Origin: a virus | Taxonomy: Duplodnaviria > Caudoviricetes | IMG/VR virus record: IMGVR_UViG_3300009168_000009 | Coordinates: 227-64,226 of that record | Strand: one strand, 5' to 3' | Length of the DNA stretch: 64,000 nucleotides | Part shown: one piece after another, positions 2,738 through 41,324 of the stretch | Position numbering within the stretch: position 1 is the first letter of the stretch | How the letters are laid out: each line of letters starts with the position of its first letter | Position numbers and translations under genes: made by a program | Notes under the pieces: model-generated | What the model was told of the DNA's origin: nothing | The model's database searches: none | Seen by the model: only the letters and a program-made list of their open reading frames with translations

Positions 2738-4195
2738 TCACAGCTTGATCATGATGTTTAAGAAGGTGGTCGGCTGCACGATCGAGAATGGGACGTTGCC
2801 GCCCTGGTTGCCGAGGACGATTCCGATCGGGGAGGCATTGACGGTGACTTGCTGCGAGTAGCCGCCCCATAGGCCGACGTTGTAGGTGCTGCCGCCCTCG
2901 ATCGAAACATAGCTCGCGGTGATGTTGTAGTTGTAGTTGCCCTGCGCGAAATGGGTATGATTCGGATCGGTGACACCGTGGGTGTGCGCGGCGTGCTCGC
3001 CGCCGCTGAAGGTGTAGGTTTCCGCGCCCTGGACGTTGCCGAGTGGACGAGCGGTGAGGCCGAGCCCGCTGCCGGCAACCGCCAGCGCGCGGCCCAGCAT
3101 TTTGGTTAGGCCGATCTTTTTATGCGCGTCGAAATCCGCCTTCGCGCCAGTGCCGCGACCGCCCGGCGTCACCGGCGCATTGGTGTTGTTGATATTGGTC
3201 CAGATCAGAATGAACAGAGCTTCGCAATCGGCATTGGCGCGCGTGGTCGCGCCTGACGTGGCATCGCCGATGGTGCCATCGTTCGCCATCACCCAACCGG
3301 GATCGGCGACGGTCTTTAGTGTCAGCTTGGCGTCGCCGGTCGAAAAGTTGGCGGTGGCCAACAGCGCCTTGACGAACTCGACCGTCACCAGCTGCTTGTT
3401 GTCGGCGGGCTCGACTGGCGTGGGCGCTTTCGGTACGCCGGTGAACACCGGCGAGGCCAGCGGAGCGTAGGCCGAGAGATCGACACCGCCGCCACCGCCG
3501 GAGCCCATGGCGATGTCTACATAGTTCTTGGTGGCGACCTCGGTTGGTCCGAGCGGATCACGGTACGCGAACAGCGGCCCTCCCAGATTGCCGCCGCCGA
3601 GTGGAAGCACCCGCAGCCAAGTCCCCTCAAAGCGGCCATAGGCGAACGTGTCGTGAGGCGCGTCGCCGAATTGCGGCGCGTGGGCATCCACGTAACTCTT
3701 GGTTGCCGCCTGGGAATCGAGGGTCGGATCGCCCGGCAGGACCAGTGGCCCCGTCATGGTGTCGCCGGCACGATCGACCTTGGCGTTGTTGATTGGGACG
3801 ACCGCCGCAGCGGCGGTGGCGTCAACGTAGCCCTTGGTCGCCGCCTCGAGCGGCGCTTCTGGGTCGCCGGCCAGGACCAGCGTGCCGGTCATGGTGTCGC
3901 CGGCACGCAGCACCCGTTCGTCAATGCTCGCGTCGTAGGTTTGGAACGTGTCGCGGATCGCTTGACCGAGATTGTCAACGCGGTTGGCGTTGTAGGGCAC
4001 GCCGAGATAATCCACGGCCGCCAGAATCTCGGAAATGCCGGCGTTCACCGCGCAGTCGGTGAGGATCGTGGTGCAGTCGTTTTTGTAGTAGAGCGGCCCC
4101 TCGCCGATGACGGCATTCTGCGGACTGTAGCCGTTGCAGACGTTGCCACCGGGCGGCGCGCCGTTCTTGTCGCTCGCTGGGAATATGCCGGCCAC
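2738..4195 (-). CDS. tail fibre protein with collar-like domain
   Basis: Repeated RAGDTMTG.L.L..DP....AATK.YVD units, SPVFTGVPKAPTP motif, collar-like GDAK..PGWVMANDG, C-terminal HAAHTH..HTH and QPT..LN.MIKL. Confidence 0.85.
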   Translation of the reverse strand: MAGIFPASDKNGAPPGGNVCNGYSPQNAVIGEGPLYYKNDCTTILTDCAVNAGISEILAAVDYLGVPYNANRVDNLGQAIRDTFQTYDASIDERVLRAGDTMTGTLVLAGDPEAPLEAATKGYVDATAAAAVVPINNAKVDRAGDTMTGPLVLPGDPTLDSQAATKSYVDAHAPQFGDAPHDTFAYGRFEGTWLRVLPLGGGNLGGPLFAYRDPLGPTEVATKNYVDIAMGSGGGGGVDLSAYAPLASPVFTGVPKAPTPVEPADNKQLVTVEFVKALLATANFSTGDAKLTLKTVADPGWVMANDGTIGDATSGATTRANADCEALFILIWTNINNTNAPVTPGGRGTGAKADFDAHKKIGLTKMLGRALAVAGSGLGLTARPLGNVQGAETYTFSGGEHAAHTHGVTDPNHTHFAQGNYNYNITASYVSIEGGSTYNVGLWGGYSQQVTVNASPIGIVLGNQGGNVPFSIVQPTTFLNIMIKL

Positions 4196-4260
4196 GGGCG
4201 CGCCCTCCAGATTGCGGTTTTATACGATCCGGGGCGTTCCGGCTATAGTTTAGGGTTGAC

Positions 4261-31607: not shown

Positions 31608-31802
31608 TCACTTGCAGCTCGGCAGCGACGGATAACGTGCGCAGACCTTGGCGCGGACTCGGGCCTTCTGCGATGGCGTCCCGTGTTGCGACACTCTGGC
31701 CAGCGCGTTGGCCGCATGCTTGCGATCGTGGATCGGATAGGCGCGCTTGCCGGGGATCGCGAAGGATGACTTGCGCAGGCTGTTGCGCTTCGATGCTCTC
31801 AT
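31608..31802 (-). CDS. small basic protein (SFA.P..R.YPI.D..HA.NALAR family)
   Basis: GGAGGAAGG SD; motif recalled from phage head-region proteins. Confidence 0.75.
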   Translation of the reverse strand: MRASKRNSLRKSSFAIPGKRAYPIHDRKHAANALARVSQHGTPSQKARVRAKVCARYPSLPSCK

Positions 31803-31942
31803 GATCCTTCCTCCTGCAGTGGCCCGTGGCGTCGGGAAAAGGAATTAAACCGGCACCACGGGCGGCCGTTGTTATTGCGGACACCGACGGCTGGTCCGGT
31901 CGAAGCTGAGGACAGCCGCAAAGCCAGCCCGACCGCCGCAGC

Positions 31943-32155
31943 TTAACAGTCGTCGTCGTCGTCGTCGCCTTCGGCAAAGTCCGGCGGCTCGTCCTCGATC
32001 TTGAGCGCGCCGGCTGCGAGCAGCTGCTTGATCTGATCCGTCGCCGTGTCCGCGAGATAGGCCGCAGTTTCGCCAGCCGGAATCTTGAGCGTGCCGCCCT
32101 GGCCGTCCTCGATCTCCAACTCGCTGCCGCTGGTATTCGTAAGCAGTACCGACAT
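31943..32155 (-). CDS. small acidic protein
   Basis: GGGAG SD; poly-Asp C-terminus. Confidence 0.65.
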   Translation of the reverse strand: MSVLLTNTSGSELEIEDGQGGTLKIPAGETAAYLADTATDQIKQLLAAGALKIEDEPPDFAEGDDDDDDC

Positions 32156-32286
32156 GGCCTGCACTCCCGTTTCCCTGATCCTGCGCCCCTGGAGCGCGGG
32201 GGATCAAGTCATGCACGAACGTGCAAATCCTGGACTTTTCGGACGAAAAATCGGGCAAGTCATTGATATTGCAGGCAGAATGTGCC

Positions 32287-32315
32287 TTGCAAGTCGCAAA
32301 ATGCGACATTATAAT
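32287..32315 (+). promoter_or_regulatory. sigma70-type promoter with palindromic operator filling the spacer
   Basis: TTGCAA-N17-TATAAT; the spacer contains GTCGCA-AAA-TGCGAC. Confidence 0.85.
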
Positions 32316-32607
32316 AGAGGCTCTATTGGGAGTGACTGTTTAGACGACGTTCTGCACTCCCCCGCTGTTTGAAAATTCGATCGCCCTGGATCACGTGTCC
32401 ACAACGGCCCAGGCTTTACCCGCTGATCGATCCATAGTCGTCCTAAGTCGCAAGCGCAGAAGTCGCTCGCGTCCCGCAGTGATTGCGCGACGCAGCGAGG
32501 CAATCGGCATTGCCCATCTGGCCTATCGGAATTTCGCCCCGGCCATTCGAGGATTGAGCCCGACGCTTGCAGATGTGAGGAAGACCGAAAACGACTCCAT
32601 GACAGTG

Positions 32608-32720
32608 TGACAATACTTAGGGCGGCGAACGCGACTCACGTTGCGCGCGCCGCCTCAGAGTGTTGCTGACGCAGCACTCGTCGCCTTGCAGCGACGTTTC
32701 TCGAAATGGAGTCACAACCA
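32608..32720 (+). repeat. structured leader motif copy A
   Basis: GC hairpin, AGTGTTGC/GCAGCACT hairpin, CGTCGC-CTTGCA-GCGACG, GGAGTCAC-N5-ATG. Confidence 0.85.
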
Positions 32721-32906
32721 ATGGAAGTCAACACCCGAGAATTTGAATTCTCGCACGGCAAGAAACCCCGAGGCTCCGGCTTCTGGATTTTCTTTTTCGA
32801 CAATGCGCGCACGTTCACGTTCGCCGGCAAATACGGCGATGCCGTTCGTGCCGCAAAGATCGAGGCCCGCCAGCAAGAAGTTTACGAGATCAAGGTGGGG
32901 CCGTGA
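32721..32906 (+). CDS. hypothetical early protein
   Basis: ATG after motif A; F.FSHGKKPRG.G.W.F motif. Confidence 0.75.
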   Translation: MEVNTREFEFSHGKKPRGSGFWIFFFDNARTFTFAGKYGDAVRAAKIEARQQEVYEIKVGP

Positions 32907-32908
32907 TC

Positions 32909-33112
32909 ATGAGCACATCGATCGATCACATCAAACTGGCCGACGGCGCGCGCGTGCGCTGCGGCCTGATCGTTCACCGCGCGGATGATCCGTTCCACTT
33001 GGGACGGATCGAAGCCGTGCACGGCAACATGAAGCTGACAGTAAAGTGGGAAAACGGATGGCTTGAACTTGGATGCGAGCCGGACGAATTCGCACGCTGG
33101 AGCGGGGAGTGA
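32909..33112 (+). CDS. hypothetical early protein (SH3-like)
   Basis: ORF coupled to previous gene. Confidence 0.6.
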   Translation: MSTSIDHIKLADGARVRCGLIVHRADDPFHLGRIEAVHGNMKLTVKWENGWLELGCEPDEFARWSGE

Positions 33113-33117
33113 TCAGA

Positions 33118-33207
33118 ATGCTCGCCGTTTACATCACTGCAACGATCCTGGCCGTGCCGGCCGGAATATGGATCGGACTTAAACTTGCCGATCTGACTTA
33201 CCGATGA
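33118..33207 (+). CDS. 29-aa hydrophobic peptide
   Basis: GGGGAG SD; MLAVYITATILAVPAGIWIGLKLADLTYR*; its stop is the start of motif B. Confidence 0.55.
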   Translation: MLAVYITATILAVPAGIWIGLKLADLTYR

Positions 33208-33303
33208 TCACTAAGGACGGCGCCGCGTGCGCCGTCTCATAGTGTTCAATCGAACACTACGCTGCCTTGCATGCAGCGTTTCTCGAAACATGAGTCACAC
33301 ATC
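33205..33303 (+). repeat. structured leader motif copy B
   Basis: TGATCACTA..GACGGCGC/GCGCCGTC..AGTGTTC/GAACACT..CGCTGC-CTTGCAT-GCAGCG..GAGTCAC. Confidence 0.9.
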
Positions 33304-34329
33304 ATGACAACTACCCAAGCGTCTAACCAGTCCGGCGTGACAATCGCGAAGGCAGCTGAGCTGCTGGAGGATTACACCGAAGCTGGCGACAACGTTTTCC
33401 TCTGGGGCGCTCCCGGTATCGGCAAAACCGACATCGCGCACCAACTCGCAGCGCGCAAGAAGCGGCGCCTGATCGAGTTTCACGCAGCGTTGCGTGAACC
33501 AGTGGACTTGCGCGGCATTCCTGCGGCCGATCATAAGACGATGACCACGAAGTGGTTCACGCCGGATGAATTGCCGCAAGCCAAGCGCGATGGCGAGGAA
33601 GGCTACTTGTTCCTCGACGAATTCAATCAAGCCAGCCCGCAGATGCAGGCCGTGCTGGCAGGATTGGTGCTGTACGGAAACATTGGCGACTATCGTCTCC
33701 CGAAAGGCTGGCGATGCATCGCTGCAGGAAACAGCGTTTCCGACCGTGCAGCCGCGCAACGAATGCCGACGCATATGCGAAACCGTTTCGCGCACGTTTA
33801 CTGCGTGCCGGACGTGATCGCGTGGACGAATTGGGCGACCGCCAACGGCGTCGAGCCGGAAATGATCGCCTTCATTCGTTTGCGACGTGAGCTGATCCAC
33901 CGCATGCCGCGCGGTGACGAGAATGCATTTCCCACGCCGAGGTCGCTGACCAAAGCCGCGAAATACATTCACCATCCGGACGATCGCCGCTTGCGATTGT
34001 TCGCGGGATTGATCGGGGATGACGTTGCAGCCGAGTTGAACGGCTTCATCCGCCTCTATCACTCGCTGGGAAGCCTGGAAGATATCGTCGCCAATCCTGA
34101 TCGTGCGCCGATACCGACGCAAGCCTCCGAACGCTGGGCCGTCTGCACTGGCCTTGCCCGTCTCGCGGATCGCAAAAACTTTCCGCAGATCATGAAGTAT
34201 GCCGCGCGCCTCGACGGGGAGCCGGCCACGTTGCTTGTTCATGACGCAACGATGATCAAGCCGGAGCTGAAACAAACGTCTGCCTATTCAAAGTGGGCAG
34301 TCGAGCATGCCGACTTGATCCTGCAGTGA
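33304..34329 (+). CDS. MoxR-like AAA+ ATPase
   Basis: Walker A GAPGIGKT, D..G.P, Walker B LFLDE, AAGN, RNRF, TPRS. Confidence 0.92.
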   Translation: MTTTQASNQSGVTIAKAAELLEDYTEAGDNVFLWGAPGIGKTDIAHQLAARKKRRLIEFHAALREPVDLRGIPAADHKTMTTKWFTPDELPQAKRDGEEGYLFLDEFNQASPQMQAVLAGLVLYGNIGDYRLPKGWRCIAAGNSVSDRAAAQRMPTHMRNRFAHVYCVPDVIAWTNWATANGVEPEMIAFIRLRRELIHRMPRGDENAFPTPRSLTKAAKYIHHPDDRRLRLFAGLIGDDVAAELNGFIRLYHSLGSLEDIVANPDRAPIPTQASERWAVCTGLARLADRKNFPQIMKYAARLDGEPATLLVHDATMIKPELKQTSAYSKWAVEHADLILQ

Positions 34330-34426
34330 TCACTAAGGACGGCCCCACGCGGGGCCGTCTCATAGTGTTCATGACGAACACTCCCGCCCTTGCAGCGGGA
34401 TCATCTGCAAAATGGAGTCACACATC
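34327..34426 (+). repeat. structured leader motif copy C
   Basis: Same three hairpins with different but complementary stems; GGAGTCAC. Confidence 0.9.
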
Positions 34427-35518
34427 ATGCCTACCAAGACCACAGGCGCGGCGAAACGCAACGCAAAGGGGCTTCCCCCGATCGTCGCGAAAAAGTCGAA
34501 GGCCAAGGCGCACACTTCCAAGGCTGCACCGCTGGCGATCGTGAAGGCTGACAAGCCCGCACCGAAGCCCGTCGCGCCGCCCGCGCCGAAGCCCGCTCCC
34601 GTGATCACTAAGACAGTCGTCGCCACGCCGCTCTCGCGGAAGGCCACGCTTGTCGCCGTAGTGATCTCGCAATGGACAGCCCGCAAGCTGGACAAGAAAG
34701 TGACCGATGAAGTCAATCGTTCACATGGAGCTGCAGCCGACGCCGGACGATTCAACAAGTTGCTGATCGAGGCCGCGCGCCTCGAAAAGCTCGGATCGCT
34801 CGTGTCGCAAGCCCGCCACGCACATTATCGCTACACGAAGCCGTGGTGCGATGAAGGAATGAGAATCCTGCCGAACGCTCTGCATCAAAAGTTTGCCGAG
34901 GAGTTTCGCAGGATCAAACGGGAATTCCATATCGCGGCCGATGAATTCTGCCGCGACTACCCGTCATTCGTGGCTGAACGCAAGAAGGCGTTGAATGGAT
35001 TGTTCAACGCTGCCGACTATCCGGACGCAAAGGAAATTCGTGCCAAGTTTCAACTCGACACGAAAACATTCCCCGTGCCGGACGCTGGCGACTTCCGCAG
35101 CGACGTGCTCGATCATGACACGATCGAGGACATCAAGCGGGAGCTGGCCGAGACGAACGAACAAGTGCTGGCCGACGCCACCCGCCACTCGATCGATCAG
35201 ATCACGCGGATCGTTGGCCACATGTCGGAAAAGCTGTCGGAATACAAGCCGGGAGCGCCCGTCAAGAAAGGCAAGGGCGGCAAGCCGAAGAAAACATTCT
35301 TCACCGACTCGCTCGTGGAAAACGTCCGCGAGCTGGCCGACTTGTTGCCTGCGTTCAATCTGACGAATGATCCGAAGATGGATCACATCGCCAGTCGCAT
35401 CAAAAAAGAGTTGTGCACCGAGGATGCCGCGGAATTGCGAGTGAGCGAACGTGCTCGCGATGCCGTGCAGAAGTCGGCAGACGACATTCTTAAAGATGTG
35501 AACAAGTTGCTCGGCTAA
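34427..35518 (+). CDS. helical protein typically found with phage AAA/VWA pairs (DUF3150-like)
   Basis: ISQWTARKLD, T.PW...G.R.LP, LFN..DYP....R.KF, L..FNLT.DP motifs; Lys/Pro-rich N-terminal tail. Confidence 0.7.
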   Translation: MPTKTTGAAKRNAKGLPPIVAKKSKAKAHTSKAAPLAIVKADKPAPKPVAPPAPKPAPVITKTVVATPLSRKATLVAVVISQWTARKLDKKVTDEVNRSHGAAADAGRFNKLLIEAARLEKLGSLVSQARHAHYRYTKPWCDEGMRILPNALHQKFAEEFRRIKREFHIAADEFCRDYPSFVAERKKALNGLFNAADYPDAKEIRAKFQLDTKTFPVPDAGDFRSDVLDHDTIEDIKRELAETNEQVLADATRHSIDQITRIVGHMSEKLSEYKPGAPVKKGKGGKPKKTFFTDSLVENVRELADLLPAFNLTNDPKMDHIASRIKKELCTEDAAELRVSERARDAVQKSADDILKDVNKLLG

Positions 35519-35523
35519 GACGA

Positions 35524-35622
35524 GCTGCAGCGTGATCAGCGACTCGAATCGAGTCGCTGATTGCAGTGGAGCTAGTCCACTCCCCGCCTTGCAGCGGGGC
35601 CTTTCCAAAATGGAGTCACATC
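35524..35622 (+). repeat. structured leader motif copy D (most divergent)
   Basis: ATCAGCGACTCG/CGAGTCGCTGAT, AGTGGA/TCCACT, CCCCGC-CTTGCA-GCGGGG, GGAGTCAC. Confidence 0.85.
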
Positions 35623-37071
35623 ATGGAAACCAAAACCGACAAGGTTGCCGGCGATCGTGTCCGCAAGGCGCGCGCCGAGTTGATCTTGTCGCAAGTGTTC
35701 TACAGCGTGCTCGTTTCAAACGTTGATCCGAAGCCGTCGCGGGCGATCCCCACGATGGCAACGGATGGCCGGAACCACTTCTATAATCCGGACTTCATTG
35801 CGAAGCTGAATCAAACGCAGCTGCTCGCAGTGCAGGCGCACGAAAGCGAACACGATGCCCGTCGCCATCACAGCCGACGCAATGGCCGTGATCCTGCGAA
35901 GTGGAACGAAGCCTGCGACTACGCAATCAACGTTGATCTCGTGGACGCCGGCTTCCAGCTTCCAGATTGGGTGCTCCTCGATCCGAAATATCGCGGCATG
36001 TCTGCCGAGGATATCTATCGGACACGGGAGCTGGATCAGCAGAAGGAGGAGGAGGCCAAGAAGCCACCGCCCCCGGATGACGATCAAGACGAGCCCGAGG
36101 ACGGCGAGGACGATCAGGAGCAAGACGATCAGTCGGAGGATGACAGCGACACCGGCGACGGTGACGACGAATCCGAGGACGACGCCGAGGACGATGACGC
36201 CGACGAAGGCGACAGCGACCAGGGCGGTGATGATCAGTCCGAAGATGGCGCCGACGGCGACTCCGGAAACGGGGATGCCGAGGGCGAGGACGAAGCCGAC
36301 GGACAGGGCGAAGGCCAAGCCGAAGGCGACGGCCAGGATCGCCCCGGCAAGTCGAGTGGCGATCCTGGCGGGATGGGCGAAGTGCTCGATGCCGCGACGG
36401 ATGCAGCCGACATGGCCGCAGCCGATGCCCAATGGGAGACAATCTTCCGACAGGCCGCGTTCCTCGCCGAGAAGCGGGGCACGGCTCCTGGGCACGTTAC
36501 AAGAGAGATCAAGCGCGCGGACAATCCCCCGCAAGATTGGCGAGAGACGTTGCGCGCTTGGTTCGATCAGGGATCACTCAAAGTCGAAAGCTGGAACCGT
36601 CCGAACCGGCGCTTCGCCGGGGCGGGCATCTATCTTCCTGGCCAGAGGCGGGACGGGATCAACCGTGCCGTGTTCCTGATCGACACGAGCGGATCAATGG
36701 ACCCGATCGCGTTGGCCGCCATCAATAACGAAGCGCAAGCTGCGATGGACGATGGCGTGCTTGACGAAGTGATCGTGATCTATGGCGACGTTCGTGTGAC
36801 GCGCGTCGATACCTACCGCCAAGGCGATGAAATCGAATTCGATCCCCGAGGCGGGGGCGGCACTGATCTCAAGCCGCTGTTCAAACACGTTGCAGACGAG
36901 CTGGAAGATGTATCCTTGATCGTCTGCTTCACCGACATGGAAATTGGCGATCCTGGCCCCGAGCCCGCGTGCCCCGTGCTGTTCGCAGCAACGGGATATC
37001 CGGAATCGGTGCGACGATATCTCGCCAACGCTCCGTGGAATTCTCCCGGCATCGATGTCGGGACGCATTGA
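35623..37071 (+). CDS. metallopeptidase-like + VWA domain protein (DUF2201-type)
   Basis: TMATDG, HESEH, WN.A.D.AIN, acidic linker, MIDAS DTSGSM, GGGGTD, FTD. Confidence 0.9.
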   Translation: METKTDKVAGDRVRKARAELILSQVFYSVLVSNVDPKPSRAIPTMATDGRNHFYNPDFIAKLNQTQLLAVQAHESEHDARRHHSRRNGRDPAKWNEACDYAINVDLVDAGFQLPDWVLLDPKYRGMSAEDIYRTRELDQQKEEEAKKPPPPDDDQDEPEDGEDDQEQDDQSEDDSDTGDGDDESEDDAEDDDADEGDSDQGGDDQSEDGADGDSGNGDAEGEDEADGQGEGQAEGDGQDRPGKSSGDPGGMGEVLDAATDAADMAAADAQWETIFRQAAFLAEKRGTAPGHVTREIKRADNPPQDWRETLRAWFDQGSLKVESWNRPNRRFAGAGIYLPGQRRDGINRAVFLIDTSGSMDPIALAAINNEAQAAMDDGVLDEVIVIYGDVRVTRVDTYRQGDEIEFDPRGGGGTDLKPLFKHVADELEDVSLIVCFTDMEIGDPGPEPACPVLFAATGYPESVRRYLANAPWNSPGIDVGTH

Positions 37072-37162
37072 TCACTAAGGGCGGCCCTGCGGGGCCGCCT
37101 CGTAGTGTTCATTCCGAACACTCGCCCATCTTGCATGGGCGTTTCTCAGAAGGAGTCACGTC
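37069..37162 (+). repeat. structured leader motif copy E
   Basis: GGCGGCCC/GGGCCGCC, AGTGTTC/GAACACT, CGCCCA-TCTTGCA-TGGGCG, GGAGTCAC. Confidence 0.9.
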
Positions 37163-37339
37163 ATGGCTACGAAAGTTGGTCGCGCACGAGCGTTGCGAGC
37201 GTGGGAGACAATGCGCTCCCCGGTTTGGCAACGGCAGCGACGGAAGATTGAGAATCTGCGGCAAGCCCTCGCCGCAGCGCGTCGCGAGCTGATCACTGCA
37301 CTGTCCAATCTGGACAAAGTGATTAAGCAGTCATCATGA
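37163..37339 (+). CDS. 58-aa basic coiled-coil protein
   Basis: Manual translation MATKVGRARALRAWETMR..; ATG follows motif E. Confidence 0.65.
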   Translation: MATKVGRARALRAWETMRSPVWQRQRRKIENLRQALAAARRELITALSNLDKVIKQSS

Positions 37340-37518
37340 ACCGCAGCGACTTCTTTGATCAAGGCTACGAACAACACGCTTCCGCCCCCGACATGTTGAT
37401 GACGGAAGTCTGGCGTTTCGCTTGCATGTTCATCACGGATCAAGAGAACGCCCGCGCCTTCGTTGAGGGTTACACCGCCGCGCGCAAGCAGCGCGACGAA
37501 CGCAACGCAGAACAGTGA
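37336..37518 (+). CDS. hypothetical protein
   Basis: ATGA overlap; its stop begins motif F. Confidence 0.65.
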   Translation: MNRSDFFDQGYEQHASAPDMLMTEVWRFACMFITDQENARAFVEGYTAARKQRDERNAEQ

Positions 37519-37613
37519 TCACTGCAGGACGCCGCCGCTGTGCGGCGTCCGACAGTGTTCATGCCGAACACGCCCCGCCTTGCAGCGGGTTTTTCGAAAA
37601 AGGAGTCACAGTC
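37516..37613 (+). repeat. structured leader motif copy F
   Basis: 37514-37562 is identical to 38016-38064 (49 nt). Confidence 0.9.
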
Positions 37614-37862
37614 ATGTTACGAGTTTTGTTTGGCGTCATCCTCGCCAGCATCTTCGGCCGGTCAAGCGTATCGGTCGAAACGAACGTGCAAACGTTCACA
37701 GACGAGCTGCCGGACGACGAGCTGCCCGAGGATGTCGGCGAAGTCGCCGAGGACTACGACTTGCTCGATGTCGATCTTGCCGACGGCCTGATCGATGACG
37801 TGAGCGATTCGCTGTTCGATGATCTCGGCGGATCAGTCCTCGACTCATTCCTCGACTGCTGA
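37614..37862 (+). CDS. small protein with hydrophobic N-terminus and highly acidic body
   Basis: ATG after motif F; MLRVLFGVILASIFG..DELPDDELPEDV.. Confidence 0.65.
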   Translation: MLRVLFGVILASIFGRSSVSVETNVQTFTDELPDDELPEDVGEVAEDYDLLDVDLADGLIDDVSDSLFDDLGGSVLDSFLDC

Positions 37863-37873
37863 GGAGGCGAACG

Positions 37874-38020
37874 ATGGAATCATTATTGATGGGCATCCTC
37901 ATGATCGCAGTCGGCGTCGGAGTGTGCTGGCTGGGAAATGCCAAAGCCAGAAGACGACGGCGGCTGATCATAGAACGCTACGAAATTCTCCGAGAGCACG
38001 CCGCGCGGAAGCGCAAGTGA
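37874..38020 (+). CDS. 48-aa membrane-anchored basic peptide
   Basis: GAGGAGG SD; MESLLMGILMIAVGVGVCWLGNAKARRRRR.. Confidence 0.6.
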   Translation: MESLLMGILMIAVGVGVCWLGNAKARRRRRLIIERYEILREHAARKRK

Positions 38021-38111
38021 TCACTGCAGGACGCCGCCGCTGTGCGGCGTCCGACAGTGTTCATACCGAACACTCCCCGCCTTGCAGCGGGGCGATTGAA
38101 TGGAGTCACAC
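38018..38111 (+). repeat. structured leader motif copy G
   Basis: Same architecture; CCCCGC-CTTGCA-GCGGGG; GGAGTCAC. Confidence 0.9.
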
Positions 38112-38759
38112 ATGCCTAAGTTACCCAAGTGGCGGCCGTTGCAGCGCGCAACGACTGCCGGACGGGAGAATGCCGAAGCCGTCGCCACGGCCATGCAAAC
38201 GTATGGCCTGGACGAAGCAGCGGCACGGGCAAAACTTGATGCCTACGCCGCCGAGTCTGAATACTGGATCAACGATCTCTATCAAGTCCAAGTCCGACGC
38301 TACGCCGATCTCACTCACATCAATATCCGACGACGCGACGGCGGCCCGATCCTGCGAGACTGGCGACACTTCCAGCAGATCAAGAATGAGTTGGTCGGCA
38401 CGGAGGCGGAAGCCGTCGAGCTGTATCCAGCTGAGAGTCGGAAGTGGGATGAAGCCAACAAGTATCATCTTTGGTGTCTGACGGACGGCTCGCGCTTTCC
38501 GTTCGGCTTCGATGATCGTCACGTCAGCTTCGACAGCGGCAAGGCCCGTGGATTGCGGCAACGGGGCCGCACGATGGAATTCCCCGATGATGACAAGTCC
38601 ACAGCGCAGGAGCTGGGACCGCAGAGACGCGCCTGCAGAATGTGCGGAGCGACCGAGGGCGAGCTGCATCACGATCAATCCGCGCGCGATCGAATGACGA
38701 CGCTCGATCCGCGACTCGTCTGCATGCTCTGCGCAGAAGGACTGGCCGAGCTAGACTGA
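38112..38759 (+). CDS. conserved phage hypothetical protein with C-terminal Zn finger
   Basis: DWR.FQ.IKNEL.G.E.EAVELYP.ESR..D.AN.YHLW motif; CRMC..CMLC. Confidence 0.8.
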   Translation: MPKLPKWRPLQRATTAGRENAEAVATAMQTYGLDEAAARAKLDAYAAESEYWINDLYQVQVRRYADLTHINIRRRDGGPILRDWRHFQQIKNELVGTEAEAVELYPAESRKWDEANKYHLWCLTDGSRFPFGFDDRHVSFDSGKARGLRQRGRTMEFPDDDKSTAQELGPQRRACRMCGATEGELHHDQSARDRMTTLDPRLVCMLCAEGLAELD

Positions 38760-38765
38760 AACTCA

Positions 38766-38800
38766 AAACCCCGACCACTTGCGTGGCCGGGGTTTTTTTT
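38766..38800 (+). terminator. rho-independent terminator closing the leader-motif array
   Basis: AAAACCCCGACCAC-ttgc-GTGGCCGGGG followed by a T run. Confidence 0.9.
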
Positions 38801-38999
38801 GGCGTGGCAGTCTTGCATACAGCCAGCCCGCCGCGCGCTCTGCGAGTCACACGAGCACGGCACGCGCGATTGCGTGAAGTGGTATCCCGTTCGTATCGTC
38901 CGCACAACAAGCCGTTGCCCAAGTCCCGCACGTGCGGGCTCGACTTGACGCAGCAAGCTGTGCCCGATCGTGCGTCACTTGCAAAAGTTTATCTTGTGC

Positions 39000-39017
39000 A
39001 ATGTCGCATTTTGCGAC
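39000..39017. promoter_or_regulatory. second copy (inverted) of the 18-bp operator
   Basis: AATGTCGCATTTTGCGAC is the exact reverse complement of 32293-32310. Confidence 0.85.
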
Positions 39018-39036
39018 ACGTTCAACGGAGTGAAAG

Positions 39037-39225
39037 ATGCAAACGAAAACATTCGTCAGGCAAGTCCGCCAGGAGCTTGATCTGCGGCAGCTGGACTTCG
39101 CTGCCGCGCTTGGAGTCTCGCGTGCGACGATCGTTCGTTATGAGAACGGGGCATCCGTCCGCCCCATTGTCCTACGTGCGATCCGTCAACTGCGAGAACA
39201 ACACAAGAGGAAAAGGAAGACATGA
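39037..39225 (+). CDS. XRE-family HTH regulator
   Basis: R..L.L.Q..FA..LGVS..TI.RYENG. Confidence 0.9.
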   Translation: MQTKTFVRQVRQELDLRQLDFAAALGVSRATIVRYENGASVRPIVLRAIRQLREQHKRKRKT

Positions 39226-39425
39226 GACGCCGACGCATATCGAGGCTTAATCCCGCGAAGCCTCCTCCTCCTCCGATCGCATTGAACGCGCTCGGACTGC
39301 CGTTGTCTCCGTTGTTCGATCGCAAGTGGAAACGCAAGATGCCGCTGACATCGATCCGGAGACTCCTTGTACCGCAGAACGGATTCCGTTTTGTGCAGGA
39401 CGATCGAGGACACGATGGACCCTGA
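39222..39425 (+). CDS. hypothetical basic protein
   Basis: ATGA overlap with HTH gene. Confidence 0.45.
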   Translation: MRRRRISRLNPAKPPPPPIALNALGLPLSPLFDRKWKRKMPLTSIRRLLVPQNGFRFVQDDRGHDGP

Positions 39426-40772: not shown

Positions 40773-41324
40773 ATGACCGCCTACGGCTATGCCCGCGTTT
40801 CGACGCGGGATCAGGACTTGACCGGCCAGCTCCACGAGCTGGCCGGTGCCGGGTGTGCGGAAGTTTTCCGCGAGAAGCTGTCTGGAGCGAAAACGGATCG
40901 GCCCCAGCTTGCGCACGTTCTGTCTAAACTTGGGGCCGGCGACGTGCTCGTGGTCACGCGGCTCGATCGACTGGCTCGATCGACGCGCGATCTCCTCAAC
41001 GTCATCAACGAAGTGAGCGCGCGCGGGGCCGGCTTCCGCTCGCTGAAAGACGTGTGGGCAGACACGACGACTCCGCATGGACGTTTGATGCTCACGATCC
41101 TGGGCGGGCTCGCAGAGTTCGAACGCGAGCTGATCCGCGCCAGGACCGGGGAGGGGCGACAACGGGCACAGGCCCGTGGCGTCAGCTTCGGCCGGCCGCG
41201 CAAAGTCACGCCAGACATCCGGCGCGAGATCGATAGACGACTGCAACGCGGCGAGACGCAGCTTGCCATTGCGCAGGCTCTCGGCGTTCACGCCGCGACG
41301 ATCAGCCGACGCAAACGGACATGA
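40773..41324 (+). CDS. small serine recombinase (resolvase/invertase) with C-terminal HTH
   Basis: YGYARVST..Q, RP.L, VVTRLDRLARS, AEFER.LI..RT..G, GRP, HTH. Confidence 0.95.
   Translation: MTAYGYARVSTRDQDLTGQLHELAGAGCAEVFREKLSGAKTDRPQLAHVLSKLGAGDVLVVTRLDRLARSTRDLLNVINEVSARGAGFRSLKDVWADTTTPHGRLMLTILGGLAEFERELIRARTGEGRQRAQARGVSFGRPRKVTPDIRREIDRRLQRGETQLAIAQALGVHAATISRRKRT

Follow-up and report, generated by a model that had tools for sequence, protein, structure and literature searches.

Several kinds of repeated element are known to stand between the genes of phages or of mobile gene arrays. The early genes of phage T7 are separated by RNase III signals, i.e., repeated, mutually similar irregular hairpins; once cut, they leave the upstream message with a protective 3′ hairpin. 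Integron arrays consist of promoterless cassettes that are read from one upstream promoter and bounded by attC sites of 60-140 nucleotides (nt), which conserve fold over sequence and fold from the bottom strand. According to the main text of the reports that describe them (PMC2839356, PMC4122927), the PeSL cassettes of T4-like phages are composite intergenic repeats of ~100 base pairs (bp) that combine a strong sigma-70 promoter with a single transcription-terminating stem-loop and end in a Shine-Dalgarno (SD) site and a start codon. The main text of a report on Cluster K mycobacteriophages (PMC3203893) describes SAS, a 13-bp consensus (GGGATAGGAGCCC) just before start codons, and ESAS, a single 17-bp inverted repeat with a lineage-specific consensus; these are scattered over the genome, and their function is stated there to be unknown. 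Here, we analyze an element that recurs seven times in a 64,000-nt stretch of phage DNA (positions 227 to 64,226 of the virus record IMGVR_UViG_3300009168_000009, hereafter the window), which is nearly all of that 64,226-base record. Each copy runs from a stop codon to the next ATG and is predicted to form three hairpins (P1, P2 and P3, in 5′ to 3′ order) followed by an SD block, with a further helix, a:b, that competes with P2. We tentatively read it, with a confidence somewhat short of even, as a module that punctuates the sense-strand RNA of an operon by means of a two-state 5′ part and a ribosome-loading 3′ part, and whose core would serve in DNA as a crossover joint.

The element resembles PeSL cassettes, as their main texts present them, in its size, in the SD site and ATG at its 3′ end, in its link to small variable genes and in the exchange of sequence inside the repeat. 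Unlike those cassettes, it has no promoter (by scan) and a terminator tail in just one of the seven copies, carries three covarying hairpins and a competing helix, lies inside a single transcription unit and belongs to an unrelated, temperate-type myovirus lineage, with no sequence relationship between the two. With SAS and ESAS, so far as the main text on them goes, it shares a GGAG block right before many starts, a single orientation and imperfect inverted repeats that often lie upstream, at a variable distance set by the spacer. However, the block here reads (A/T)GGAGTCAC, with only the GGAG core in common with SAS, and the element stands apart from both in that its three hairpins covary freely, one loop is invariant, a stop codon is built in and all copies are confined to one operon; the hosts differ as well. 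As in the T7 signals, there are intercistronic rods of about two helical turns with an internal loop, known here by prediction, whereas the rod of this element competes with P2 and holds the upstream stop codon, and is followed by P3 and the SD block. As in attC arrays, structured repeats bound promoterless units that differ between relatives; in contrast to attC, the fold is on the sense strand, the crossover at the P2 core is of homologous type and the 3′ third is a translation start region, and no integron integrase gene was recognised among the ~30 open reading frames (ORFs) of the window covered by our protein family scans (Pfam and PHROGs). Full-text literature searches, which covered main texts, turned up these analogues and no description of the motif itself. 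A stop-codon-containing helix that competes with a covarying hairpin, within a repeated start-associated intercistronic element, appears to be a feature so far undescribed.

The seven copies are all on the plus strand and within one operon, and their coordinates are collected in Table 1. They are 93-116 nt long, and the distance from one start to the next ranges from 447 to 1536 bp. CTTGCA, GAGTCAC and ATG are constant in all seven; TGATCACT is present in five, its counterpart being TGACAATACT in copy A and TGATCAGC in copy D. Over the whole record, the pattern CTTGCA-N14-24-GAGTCAC-N2-6-ATG occurs seven times on the forward strand and never on the reverse strand or in a backwards control. Each copy beats its own shuffles in folding (z of −2.9 to −5.9), with shuffles folding as well in 0 of 200 cases for six copies and in 3 of 200 for copy F. 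An earlier note on this DNA, written from the letters alone, had described just such a motif in front of seven gene units, and this description is confirmed; the P2 and P3 stems that it quoted are correct, including the G-U pair in copy A, and it was right to set CRISPR aside, since the repeats have the lengths given above and the spacers are whole genes. Its copy positions are sound for the array as a whole and wrong for copy D, which it began at 35524: the stop codon of that copy is a TAA at 35516, and the hairpin starts at 35533.

Copies of the element are not confined to the window. A covariance model (R1) was built from four window copies and three copies of two other viral contigs obtained by pattern scan. 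On the window, it returned exactly seven plus-strand matches (E of 5.6e-29 to 2.8e-8), and the best reverse-strand match had an E of 1.6e-4. Five other viral records searched whole contained 6, 6, 6, 6 and 3 copies (two of these records are identical over the fetched locus), and three further records searched whole contained 3, 7 and 4; in each of these eight records, the copies were clustered in one stretch and shared one orientation. R1 matches were also present in 8 of 27 viral loci tested after a second pattern scan, and metagenome fragments gave further copies. In all, 15 other uncultured viral contigs carry 2-7 copies each, always clustered. The final alignment (A6) comprises 80 matches, 75 of them distinct, from 22 sources; an earlier alignment held 43 copies. 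A search of Rfam 15, a check that the earlier note had suggested, gave no match at gathering score over the 64 kb, and at E up to 1 it gave three weak matches in 32200-39100, all at 38581-38809 and none on an element. Judged by these sequences, the family is a real RNA motif common to related phages.

The alignments reveal strong covariation in all three helices. Across the 75 distinct copies and 21 pairs, standard pairs fill 93.7% of cells, compared with 36.7-46.7% in slid controls, in which the 3′ partners were moved by 1-3 columns. Changes on both sides are seen at 20 of the 21 pairs, and double-change cells number 309 (39-78 when slid), cell counts that overstate the independent events, given alignments fitted to the model and rows that in many cases are orthologs or recent duplicates; even so, the margin is very large, and none of 500 shuffles reached any of these measures. 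The 43-copy alignment gave the same covariation picture. G-U pairs outnumber A-C combinations by 54 to 5 in P1 and P2 and by 60 to 13 across all 21 pairs, and this excess indicates that the fold is formed on the sense strand, i.e., in the transcript or, less likely, in that strand of the DNA. Comparison of the copies establishes the family, its three helices and its sense-strand bias.

The 5′ part can adopt a second fold that excludes P2. Strand a comprises the first nine bases of the element (UGAUCACUr), strand b is the 5′ arm of P2 (yAGUGUUCA) and strand c is GAACACU. In the minimum-energy structures computed by RNAfold for five of the seven window copies, a:b replaces P2 and P1 is lengthened into one long hairpin. 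The a:b pairs occupy 82.9% of cells in the 43-copy set, compared with 25-57% in slid controls, and one of these pairs is divided between A-U (19 copies) and G-C (18 copies). In 42 of 43 copies, the segment that spans a, P1 and b is predicted to form one hairpin (mean, −27.5 kcal/mol). In 27 of the 43, this is a rod of 17 or 18 pairs, interrupted by a small, A-rich and conserved internal loop of 1x2 or 2x2 type (A facing CA, or CA facing GA). For naked RNA, the predicted advantage of this rod state over the state with P1 and P2 averages 2.9 kcal/mol and exceeds 1 kcal/mol in 58 of the 75 copies. Yet compensation is cleanest in P2: where strand b is off consensus, strand c compensates in 30 of 31 cases, and one copy (L130:1688) compensates in both a and c. 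Thus, P2 is disfavoured in the free transcript yet strongly selected, so that it must form in a state in which strand a is unavailable, and the element is best described as two-state. Such a design, with the a:b rod as one state and P2 as the other, is well supported by the modelled folds. Earlier work on the window had recognised three stems, and had rightly taken them to be selected, probably as RNA, as the covariation and the sense-strand G-U excess now attest; the covariation that it hoped to see holds and grows stronger as homologs are added. What escaped it is that the stop-codon strand can pair with the 5′ arm of P2 instead.

In most copies, this stop codon is that of the upstream gene. 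Strand a has a TGA at its first three helix positions in 58 of the 75 copies. In 45 of these 58, the frame that it closes is open over 25 or more upstream codons (median of 100 codons, compared with 15 and 25 in the other two frames), which is far above a one-in-three chance and indicates that the TGA is the real stop of the upstream gene. By the known footprint of bacterial ribosomes, one that terminates with this TGA in its A site covers about the nine bases of strand a, with P1 at its entry channel. Since the footprint lies over strand a, termination must open a:b, thereby freeing b for c.

In the mechanism that we propose, strand a, usually starting with the upstream TGA, would pair with b and so lengthen the GC-rich P1 to 17-18 pairs. 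Removal of strand a, whether by a ribosome terminating on the TGA or by a cut in the rod (e.g., by an RNase III-type enzyme), would allow b to pair with c and form P2. A cut on the 3′ side of the rod would leave P1 on the upstream RNA and make b:c the 5′-terminal hairpin of the downstream RNA. The polycistronic mRNA would in this way be punctuated: P1 would end and protect the upstream segment, P2 and P3 would head and protect the downstream segment, and all units would share one strong type of start site, while translation or processing of the gene upstream would govern the switch. In DNA, the conserved P2 core would act as a crossover point for the exchange of 'element + gene' units among related phages. 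We infer both the trigger and the effects on stability, processing and translation. A ribosome trigger is favoured by the embedded stop codon, by a mini-ORF that gives copy A a TGA and by D-type copies that lack a:b, in which the stop lies upstream. A processing trigger is favoured by the constant length of the rod and by its internal loop; the predicted rod resembles T7-type RNase III signals in lying between cistrons and in being an irregular helix that makes about two turns and has an internal loop.

A bolder form of this mechanism, which we regard as rather unlikely, is a termination-sensing switch, in which the finishing ribosome would open a:b and the resulting P2 state would license the stability, processing or translation of the next unit; together with the crossover core in the same ~100 nt, this would amount to a self-contained cassette system. 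Were it true, any gene placed between two elements would automatically be expressed and coupled to its neighbour, and an RNA switch combined with homologous recombination would yield integron-like logic in which no integrase takes part. A real switch would also give nature a compact way to couple neighbouring cistrons or to insulate them, and synthetic operons a part that could be reused; it would explain, too, how small genes can come and go in the variable region of these phages while expression is kept. Should the hairpins prove to be only stability or processing signals, they would still constitute a new phage RNA motif of Rfam grade. Repeated start-associated phage elements (PeSL, SAS and ESAS) have been described before, mostly without a mechanism in the texts cited above. 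The present family is unusually clean, with 75 distinct copies, strong covariation in three helices and a fourth, exclusive helix that contains a stop codon, and its concrete two-state model is directly testable with reporters and structure probing.

Alternatively, the element could serve to cut the operon transcript into unit mRNAs, either as a small self-cleaving ribozyme of a new kind or as the target of an endoribonuclease dedicated to it, in the manner of Cas6 or ToxN. Its intercistronic position, its repetition along one precursor and its multi-hairpin build, with invariant nucleotides only in a loop and in single-stranded joints, would suit such a role. Nevertheless, we hold this to be very unlikely: no Rfam ribozyme family matched at any E up to 1, the few conserved letters are mostly explained by the stop codon, strand b and the SD block, and no nuclease gene was recognised in the operon with Pfam or PHROGs.

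The 3′ module consists of P3 (a stem of 5-7 pairs with a CUUGCA loop), a linker that is first pyrimidine-rich and then A-rich, GGAGUC(AC) and the AUG. The distance from GGAG to ATG is 6-9 nt in 62 of 64 copies scored, whereas that from the TTGCA loop motif to GAGTC spans 14-41 nt (62 of the 63 copies scored lie within 14-26 nt); a fixed distance on one side and a variable one on the other mark an SD site rather than a −35/−10 pair. By its sequence, the 3′ module is a standard ribosome-loading leader. GAGTCAC followed by ATG had already been described as part of a constant architecture, and it is invariant in the window; that the block is mostly an SD site at a fixed distance from the ATG had been overlooked. 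The loop of P3 reads CTTGCA in 55 of 64 copies scored and CTTGCT in six, and its stem has double changes at all five pairs.

Several observations speak against the punctuation reading. Besides the fitted and partly redundant alignments, departures of strand b are compensated in strand a in just 10 of 31 cases by alignment, in which a is not structurally aligned, and D-type copies as well as some A-type copies lack the usual a:b helix; copy D of the window has no competing helix of the usual kind. The predicted accessibility of the SD site is the same with a ribosome on the stop codon (0.33) as in the free RNA (0.34), and it is 0.31 with strand c free versus 0.37 with strand c locked, a direction to be expected from the removal of any partner. 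Translational coupling via SD occlusion is therefore rejected, the shift in accessibility being too small and its direction trivial. Lastly, the invariant CUUGCA loop and the UCAC after GGAG fall outside what punctuation explains, and UCAC is kept even in a lineage (L176) whose SD site is AAGG.

The constancy of this loop and of UCAC is the main reason why a trans-acting factor stays a serious rival, albeit one that we consider unlikely. A phage or host protein, or a small RNA, would recognise the P3 hairpin with its constant loop, perhaps together with GAGUCAC, and co-regulate the translation or antitermination of all units; analogues are lambda N with boxB and phage translational repressors with their operators. 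Such a factor would account for the loop and UCAC, which punctuation does not, and for a P3 stem that covaries freely around a constant loop. On the other side, no candidate regulator gene is common to all arrays, in which only the ATPase, DUF3150 and DUF2201 genes are constant; one copy in the related locus L144 has no P3; no likeness to known protein-binding RNA families was found in Rfam; and the competition between a:b and P2 would be left unexplained, although a trans-acting factor and punctuation could coexist.

Two further pairings within the 3′ part were considered and rejected. A closing helix between GUGA and UCAC is not borne out, as variants of UCAC have no compensating partner. 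The association of CTTGCT with GGAGTCT suggested that the P3 loop might pair or covary with the SD block; it is confined to two related phages, however, and like changes go with like, which makes linkage by descent more likely.

The modules of the element can occur separately, as two observations in L144 indicate: one copy (reverse strand; locus 4149-4231) lacks P3, its P2 being directly followed by the SD block, and ~200 nt upstream of it, the operon leader holds a fragment with P1 and P2 only. In another locus, L066 (reverse strand), the elements at 880-984 and 766-866 lie nearly back to back, and a 32-amino-acid (aa) hydrophobic ORF that starts at one of them reads through P2 and P3 of the next, which begins ~15 nt downstream.

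The units between the elements behave as cassettes. The genes for the ATPase, the DUF3150-like protein and the DUF2201/VWA protein each have an element of their own in every array that reaches them. The 80 ORFs located 3′ of an element form 29 clusters, in which this trio makes up 45 ORFs and the other 35 fall into 26 clusters, mostly singletons. A small gene whose product begins MSxxEAxAVVKAxG is found, together with its element, at three positions in three related phages, i.e., three units before the ATPase gene (L144), between the ATPase and DUF3150 genes (L125) and after the VWA gene (L033), and two accessory genes stand in one order in the window and in the opposite order in the related loci L123 and L124. 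Related phages do, then, hold different genes between copies, a possibility that the earlier note had raised; its reading of the motif as a cis-regulatory, processing or recombination element is supported, and is easy to satisfy because of its breadth. Its statements that the array is early and that the element coordinates the MoxR-AAA/VWA module are inferences.

The elements themselves are mosaic. Copy E shares 92% identity with the L123 copy after the VWA gene in its 5′ module but not in its 3′ module; the 3′ module of copy B is 93-96% identical to those of the pre-ATPase copies of three relatives, and its 5′ module is closest to that of copy C. Copies F and G have 5′ modules that are 100% identical and 3′ modules that differ. 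Over 76 nt from the stop codon, F (37516-37591) and G (38018-38093) are 97% identical, while their flanking genes are unrelated, which suggests that the 5′ two-thirds of the element were recently duplicated or gene-converted. The switch of relatedness occurs at the P2 core, the most conserved stretch, as a homologous crossover within the repeat would leave it, and the phage has RecE/RecT-type genes.

Taken alone, this mosaicism would suit recombination joints or selfish repeats of a PeSL-like kind, in which the hairpins would be incidental or act in DNA and the RNA fold would have no regulatory role. The modules that switch at the P2 core, the small AVVKA gene at its three positions, the 26 accessory clusters and the near-identical 76-nt stretch of F and G are all as expected from such joints, and RecE-like and RecT-like proteins could use short homology. 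We nonetheless think it distinctly unlikely that recombination is all there is. The 54:5 sense-strand G-U bias and the compensatory stem changes denote selection on a single-strand fold; homology would instead select sameness; P1, the least conserved in sequence, would be of little use as homology; and the copies are found in one operon and one orientation only.

With respect to transcription, the region is one unit, with a single promoter-like site and one terminator. The promoter-like site at 32287-32315 is the sole one found in 31800-39300 when both strands were scanned, and the terminator fold has an energy of −25 kcal/mol, which 1 of 200 shuffles equalled; a simple terminator scan did not list 38769-38800. 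A 15-bp palindrome occurs exactly twice in the window, at 32293 and 39003. Its presence inside the operon promoter and again before the gene of a small HTH_3 protein suggests that this protein may repress both its own gene and the element-bearing operon, the palindrome serving as a putative operator. As no RNA polymerase gene was found among the ~30 ORFs scanned, the host polymerase is assumed to transcribe the operon.

These data bear on the remaining rival, according to which the elements are DNA-level promoters, terminators or integron attC-type recombination sites, and which we judge most improbable. In its favour, CTTGCA resembles the −35 region of the operon promoter (CTTGCAA, 32286), the genes in the array are promoterless and separated by structured repeats of attC-like size, and there is a serine recombinase-like gene at 40773-41324. 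However, the distance from loop to GAGTC varies over 14-41 nt, no −10 hexamer is present, and the scan found no promoter inside any of the seven copies; a T-run follows P3 in copy F only and follows no P1; the fold is on the sense strand, in contrast to the bottom-strand fold of attC; an integron-type tyrosine integrase was not seen, in a scan of only ~30 ORFs; and compensated changes are not required of a protein-bound DNA palindrome. The promoter reading is accordingly rejected on spacing and on the missing −10 hexamer, and the terminator reading on the single T-run. Promoters that depend on sigma-54 have −24/−12 motifs, and ECF-type promoters have a motif layout of their own; by eye, the element fits neither. 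No attC core sites (R′/R″, GTTRRRY) were seen by eye in the alignments, and no tRNA-like structures were detected by ARAGORN. Recoding or selenocysteine insertion at the TGA is likewise rejected, because the frames after the TGA differ among copies and the loops of P1 are not conserved.

The source of the window is a complete 64-kb phage, a myovirus of temperate type, and the record has direct terminal repeats. Genes for the tail sheath, baseplate, major head protein, portal and large terminase lie on the minus strand up to ~32.3 kb; from there on, genes are on the plus strand and include those for a CI-like repressor and for the RecE-like and RecT-like recombination proteins. The gene at 40773-41324 looks, from its sequence alone, like a serine recombinase gene. 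Within the operon, the 61- and 67-aa ORFs of unit A had no Pfam or PHROGs match, and PHROGs matches to phrog_1297 (9e-80) and phrog_1314 (1e-87) were obtained in the conserved trio region (33304-37071).

Table 1. Coordinates of the element copies and of the features and genes of the operon (positions in the window; SD, Shine-Dalgarno block).
Feature	Position	Strand	Score or basis	Parts and remarks
Sigma-70-like promoter, TTGCAA-17 nt-TATAAT	32287-32315	+	10 of 12 positions match	
15-bp palindrome, copy 1, putative operator	32293-32307	.	pattern and inverted repeat	between −35 and −10 hexamers
Mini-ORF, ATG ACA GTG TGA	32598-32610	+	read directly	three codons; its TGA is the TGA of copy A
Copy A	32608-32723	+	52.7 bits	first in operon; P1 32620-32655 (with inner hairpin); P2 32659-32665/32672-32678; P3 32680-32695 (CTTGCA loop 32685); SD 32708-32715; ATG 32721
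Unit A genes, three small ORFs (61, 67 and ~29 aa)	32721-33207	+		stops and starts adjacent or overlapping, no element between
Copy B	33205-33306	+	67.1 bits	5′ of AAA ATPase gene; TGA 33205; P1 33215-33237; P2 33241-33247/33252-33258; P3 33260-33278; SD 33291-33298; ATG 33304
AAA ATPase gene	33304-34329	+	AAA_5 1.2e-7	
Copy C	34327-34429	+	93.9 bits	5′ of DUF3150-like gene; TGA 34327; P1 34337-34360; P2 34364-34370/34376-34382; P3 34384-34399; SD 34414-34421; ATG 34427
DUF3150-like gene	34427-35518	+	DUF3150 3e-4, below curated cut-off	
Copy D	35516-35625	+	40.5 bits	5′ of DUF2201 metallopeptidase/VWA gene; stop TAA 35516; P1 ~35534-35562; P2 35565-35570/35576-35581; P3 35583-35598; SD 35612-35619; ATG 35623
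DUF2201_N and DUF2201 VWA-like (metallopeptidase/VWA) gene	35623-37071	+	DUF2201_N 1.2e-38	
Copy E	37069-37165	+	84.9 bits	TGA 37069; P1 37079-37100; P2 37104-37110/37116-37122; P3 37124-37139; SD 37152-37159; ATG 37163
Variable units E (58 and 60 aa), F (82 and 48 aa) and G (215 aa)	37163-38759	+	G: DUF7694 3.8e-12	
Copy F	37516-37616	+	116.2 bits	TGA 37516; P1 37527-37550; P2 37554-37560/37566-37572; P3 37574-37589; SD 37602-37609; ATG 37614
Copy G	38018-38114	+	105.7 bits	TGA 38018; P1 38029-38052; P2 38056-38062/38068-38074; P3 38076-38091; SD 38102-38109; ATG 38112
Intrinsic terminator ending the operon	38769-38800	+	read and folded	10-pair stem with one mismatch, then eight T
15-bp palindrome, copy 2	39003-39017	.		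20 nt 5′ of 62-aa HTH_3 gene (39037-39225; HTH_3 1.8e-10)

Relatives of the phage were sought through the ATPase gene and the DNA pattern. A related ATPase is present in 815 phage records, all below 60% identity and at ~31% among the best-ranked, so that no close homolog is seen in a cultured phage, and no close relatives of it were found in 185,579 species genomes. The element is absent from two cultured phages with a distant ATPase homolog, a Rhizobium N4-like phage and Thermus phage phiFa. The DNA pattern was met at seven loci in the species genomes, of which only L141, a 2.7-kb contig in an alphaproteobacterial metagenome-assembled genome (MAG), has the element; it is a fragment of a related phage, with the end of the ATPase gene, one element, the DUF3150 gene and the DUF2201 gene. 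A search of 50 genomes of the order of this MAG gave no match beyond the MAG itself. L141 is thus a weak hint of an alphaproteobacterial host, and its place in the MAG may be a binning artefact. Contigs from four sequencing runs place the same or related phages in soil and wastewater samples; these contigs showed neither joints nor ends.

The three codons of the mini-ORF before copy A have identical letters in the first copies of the related loci L123 and L124. No SD site was seen upstream of it, so that its translation is doubtful. Upstream of the mini-ORF lie another CTTGCAG (32566) and GACTCC, the reverse complement of GGAGTC.

Two 12-base stretches inside genes, both out of frame, equal the 5′ end of the element: GTGATCACTAAG at 34601-34612 in the DUF3150-like gene and CTGATCACTGCA at 37280-37291 in the 58-aa gene. 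The former is located where the DUF3150 protein of the window begins to align with shorter homologs (~296 versus 363 aa) and may, judging from this position, be a remnant of an element that disappeared when genes fused. GTGATCA occurs 41 times in the window, compared with 11.0 expected, a count that none of 100 shuffles reached, and the 8-base palindrome GTGATCAC occurs at nine places in the window and also marks the element-free stop/start junctions of the small genes at 32903 and 33109. The DUF2201 protein has a long acidic low-complexity insert, coded at 36079-36323, between its metallopeptidase-like and VWA-like halves; it is rich in Asp, Glu and Gly, has imperfect periodic repeats of 9-21 nt, and is matched by many unrelated metagenome contigs.

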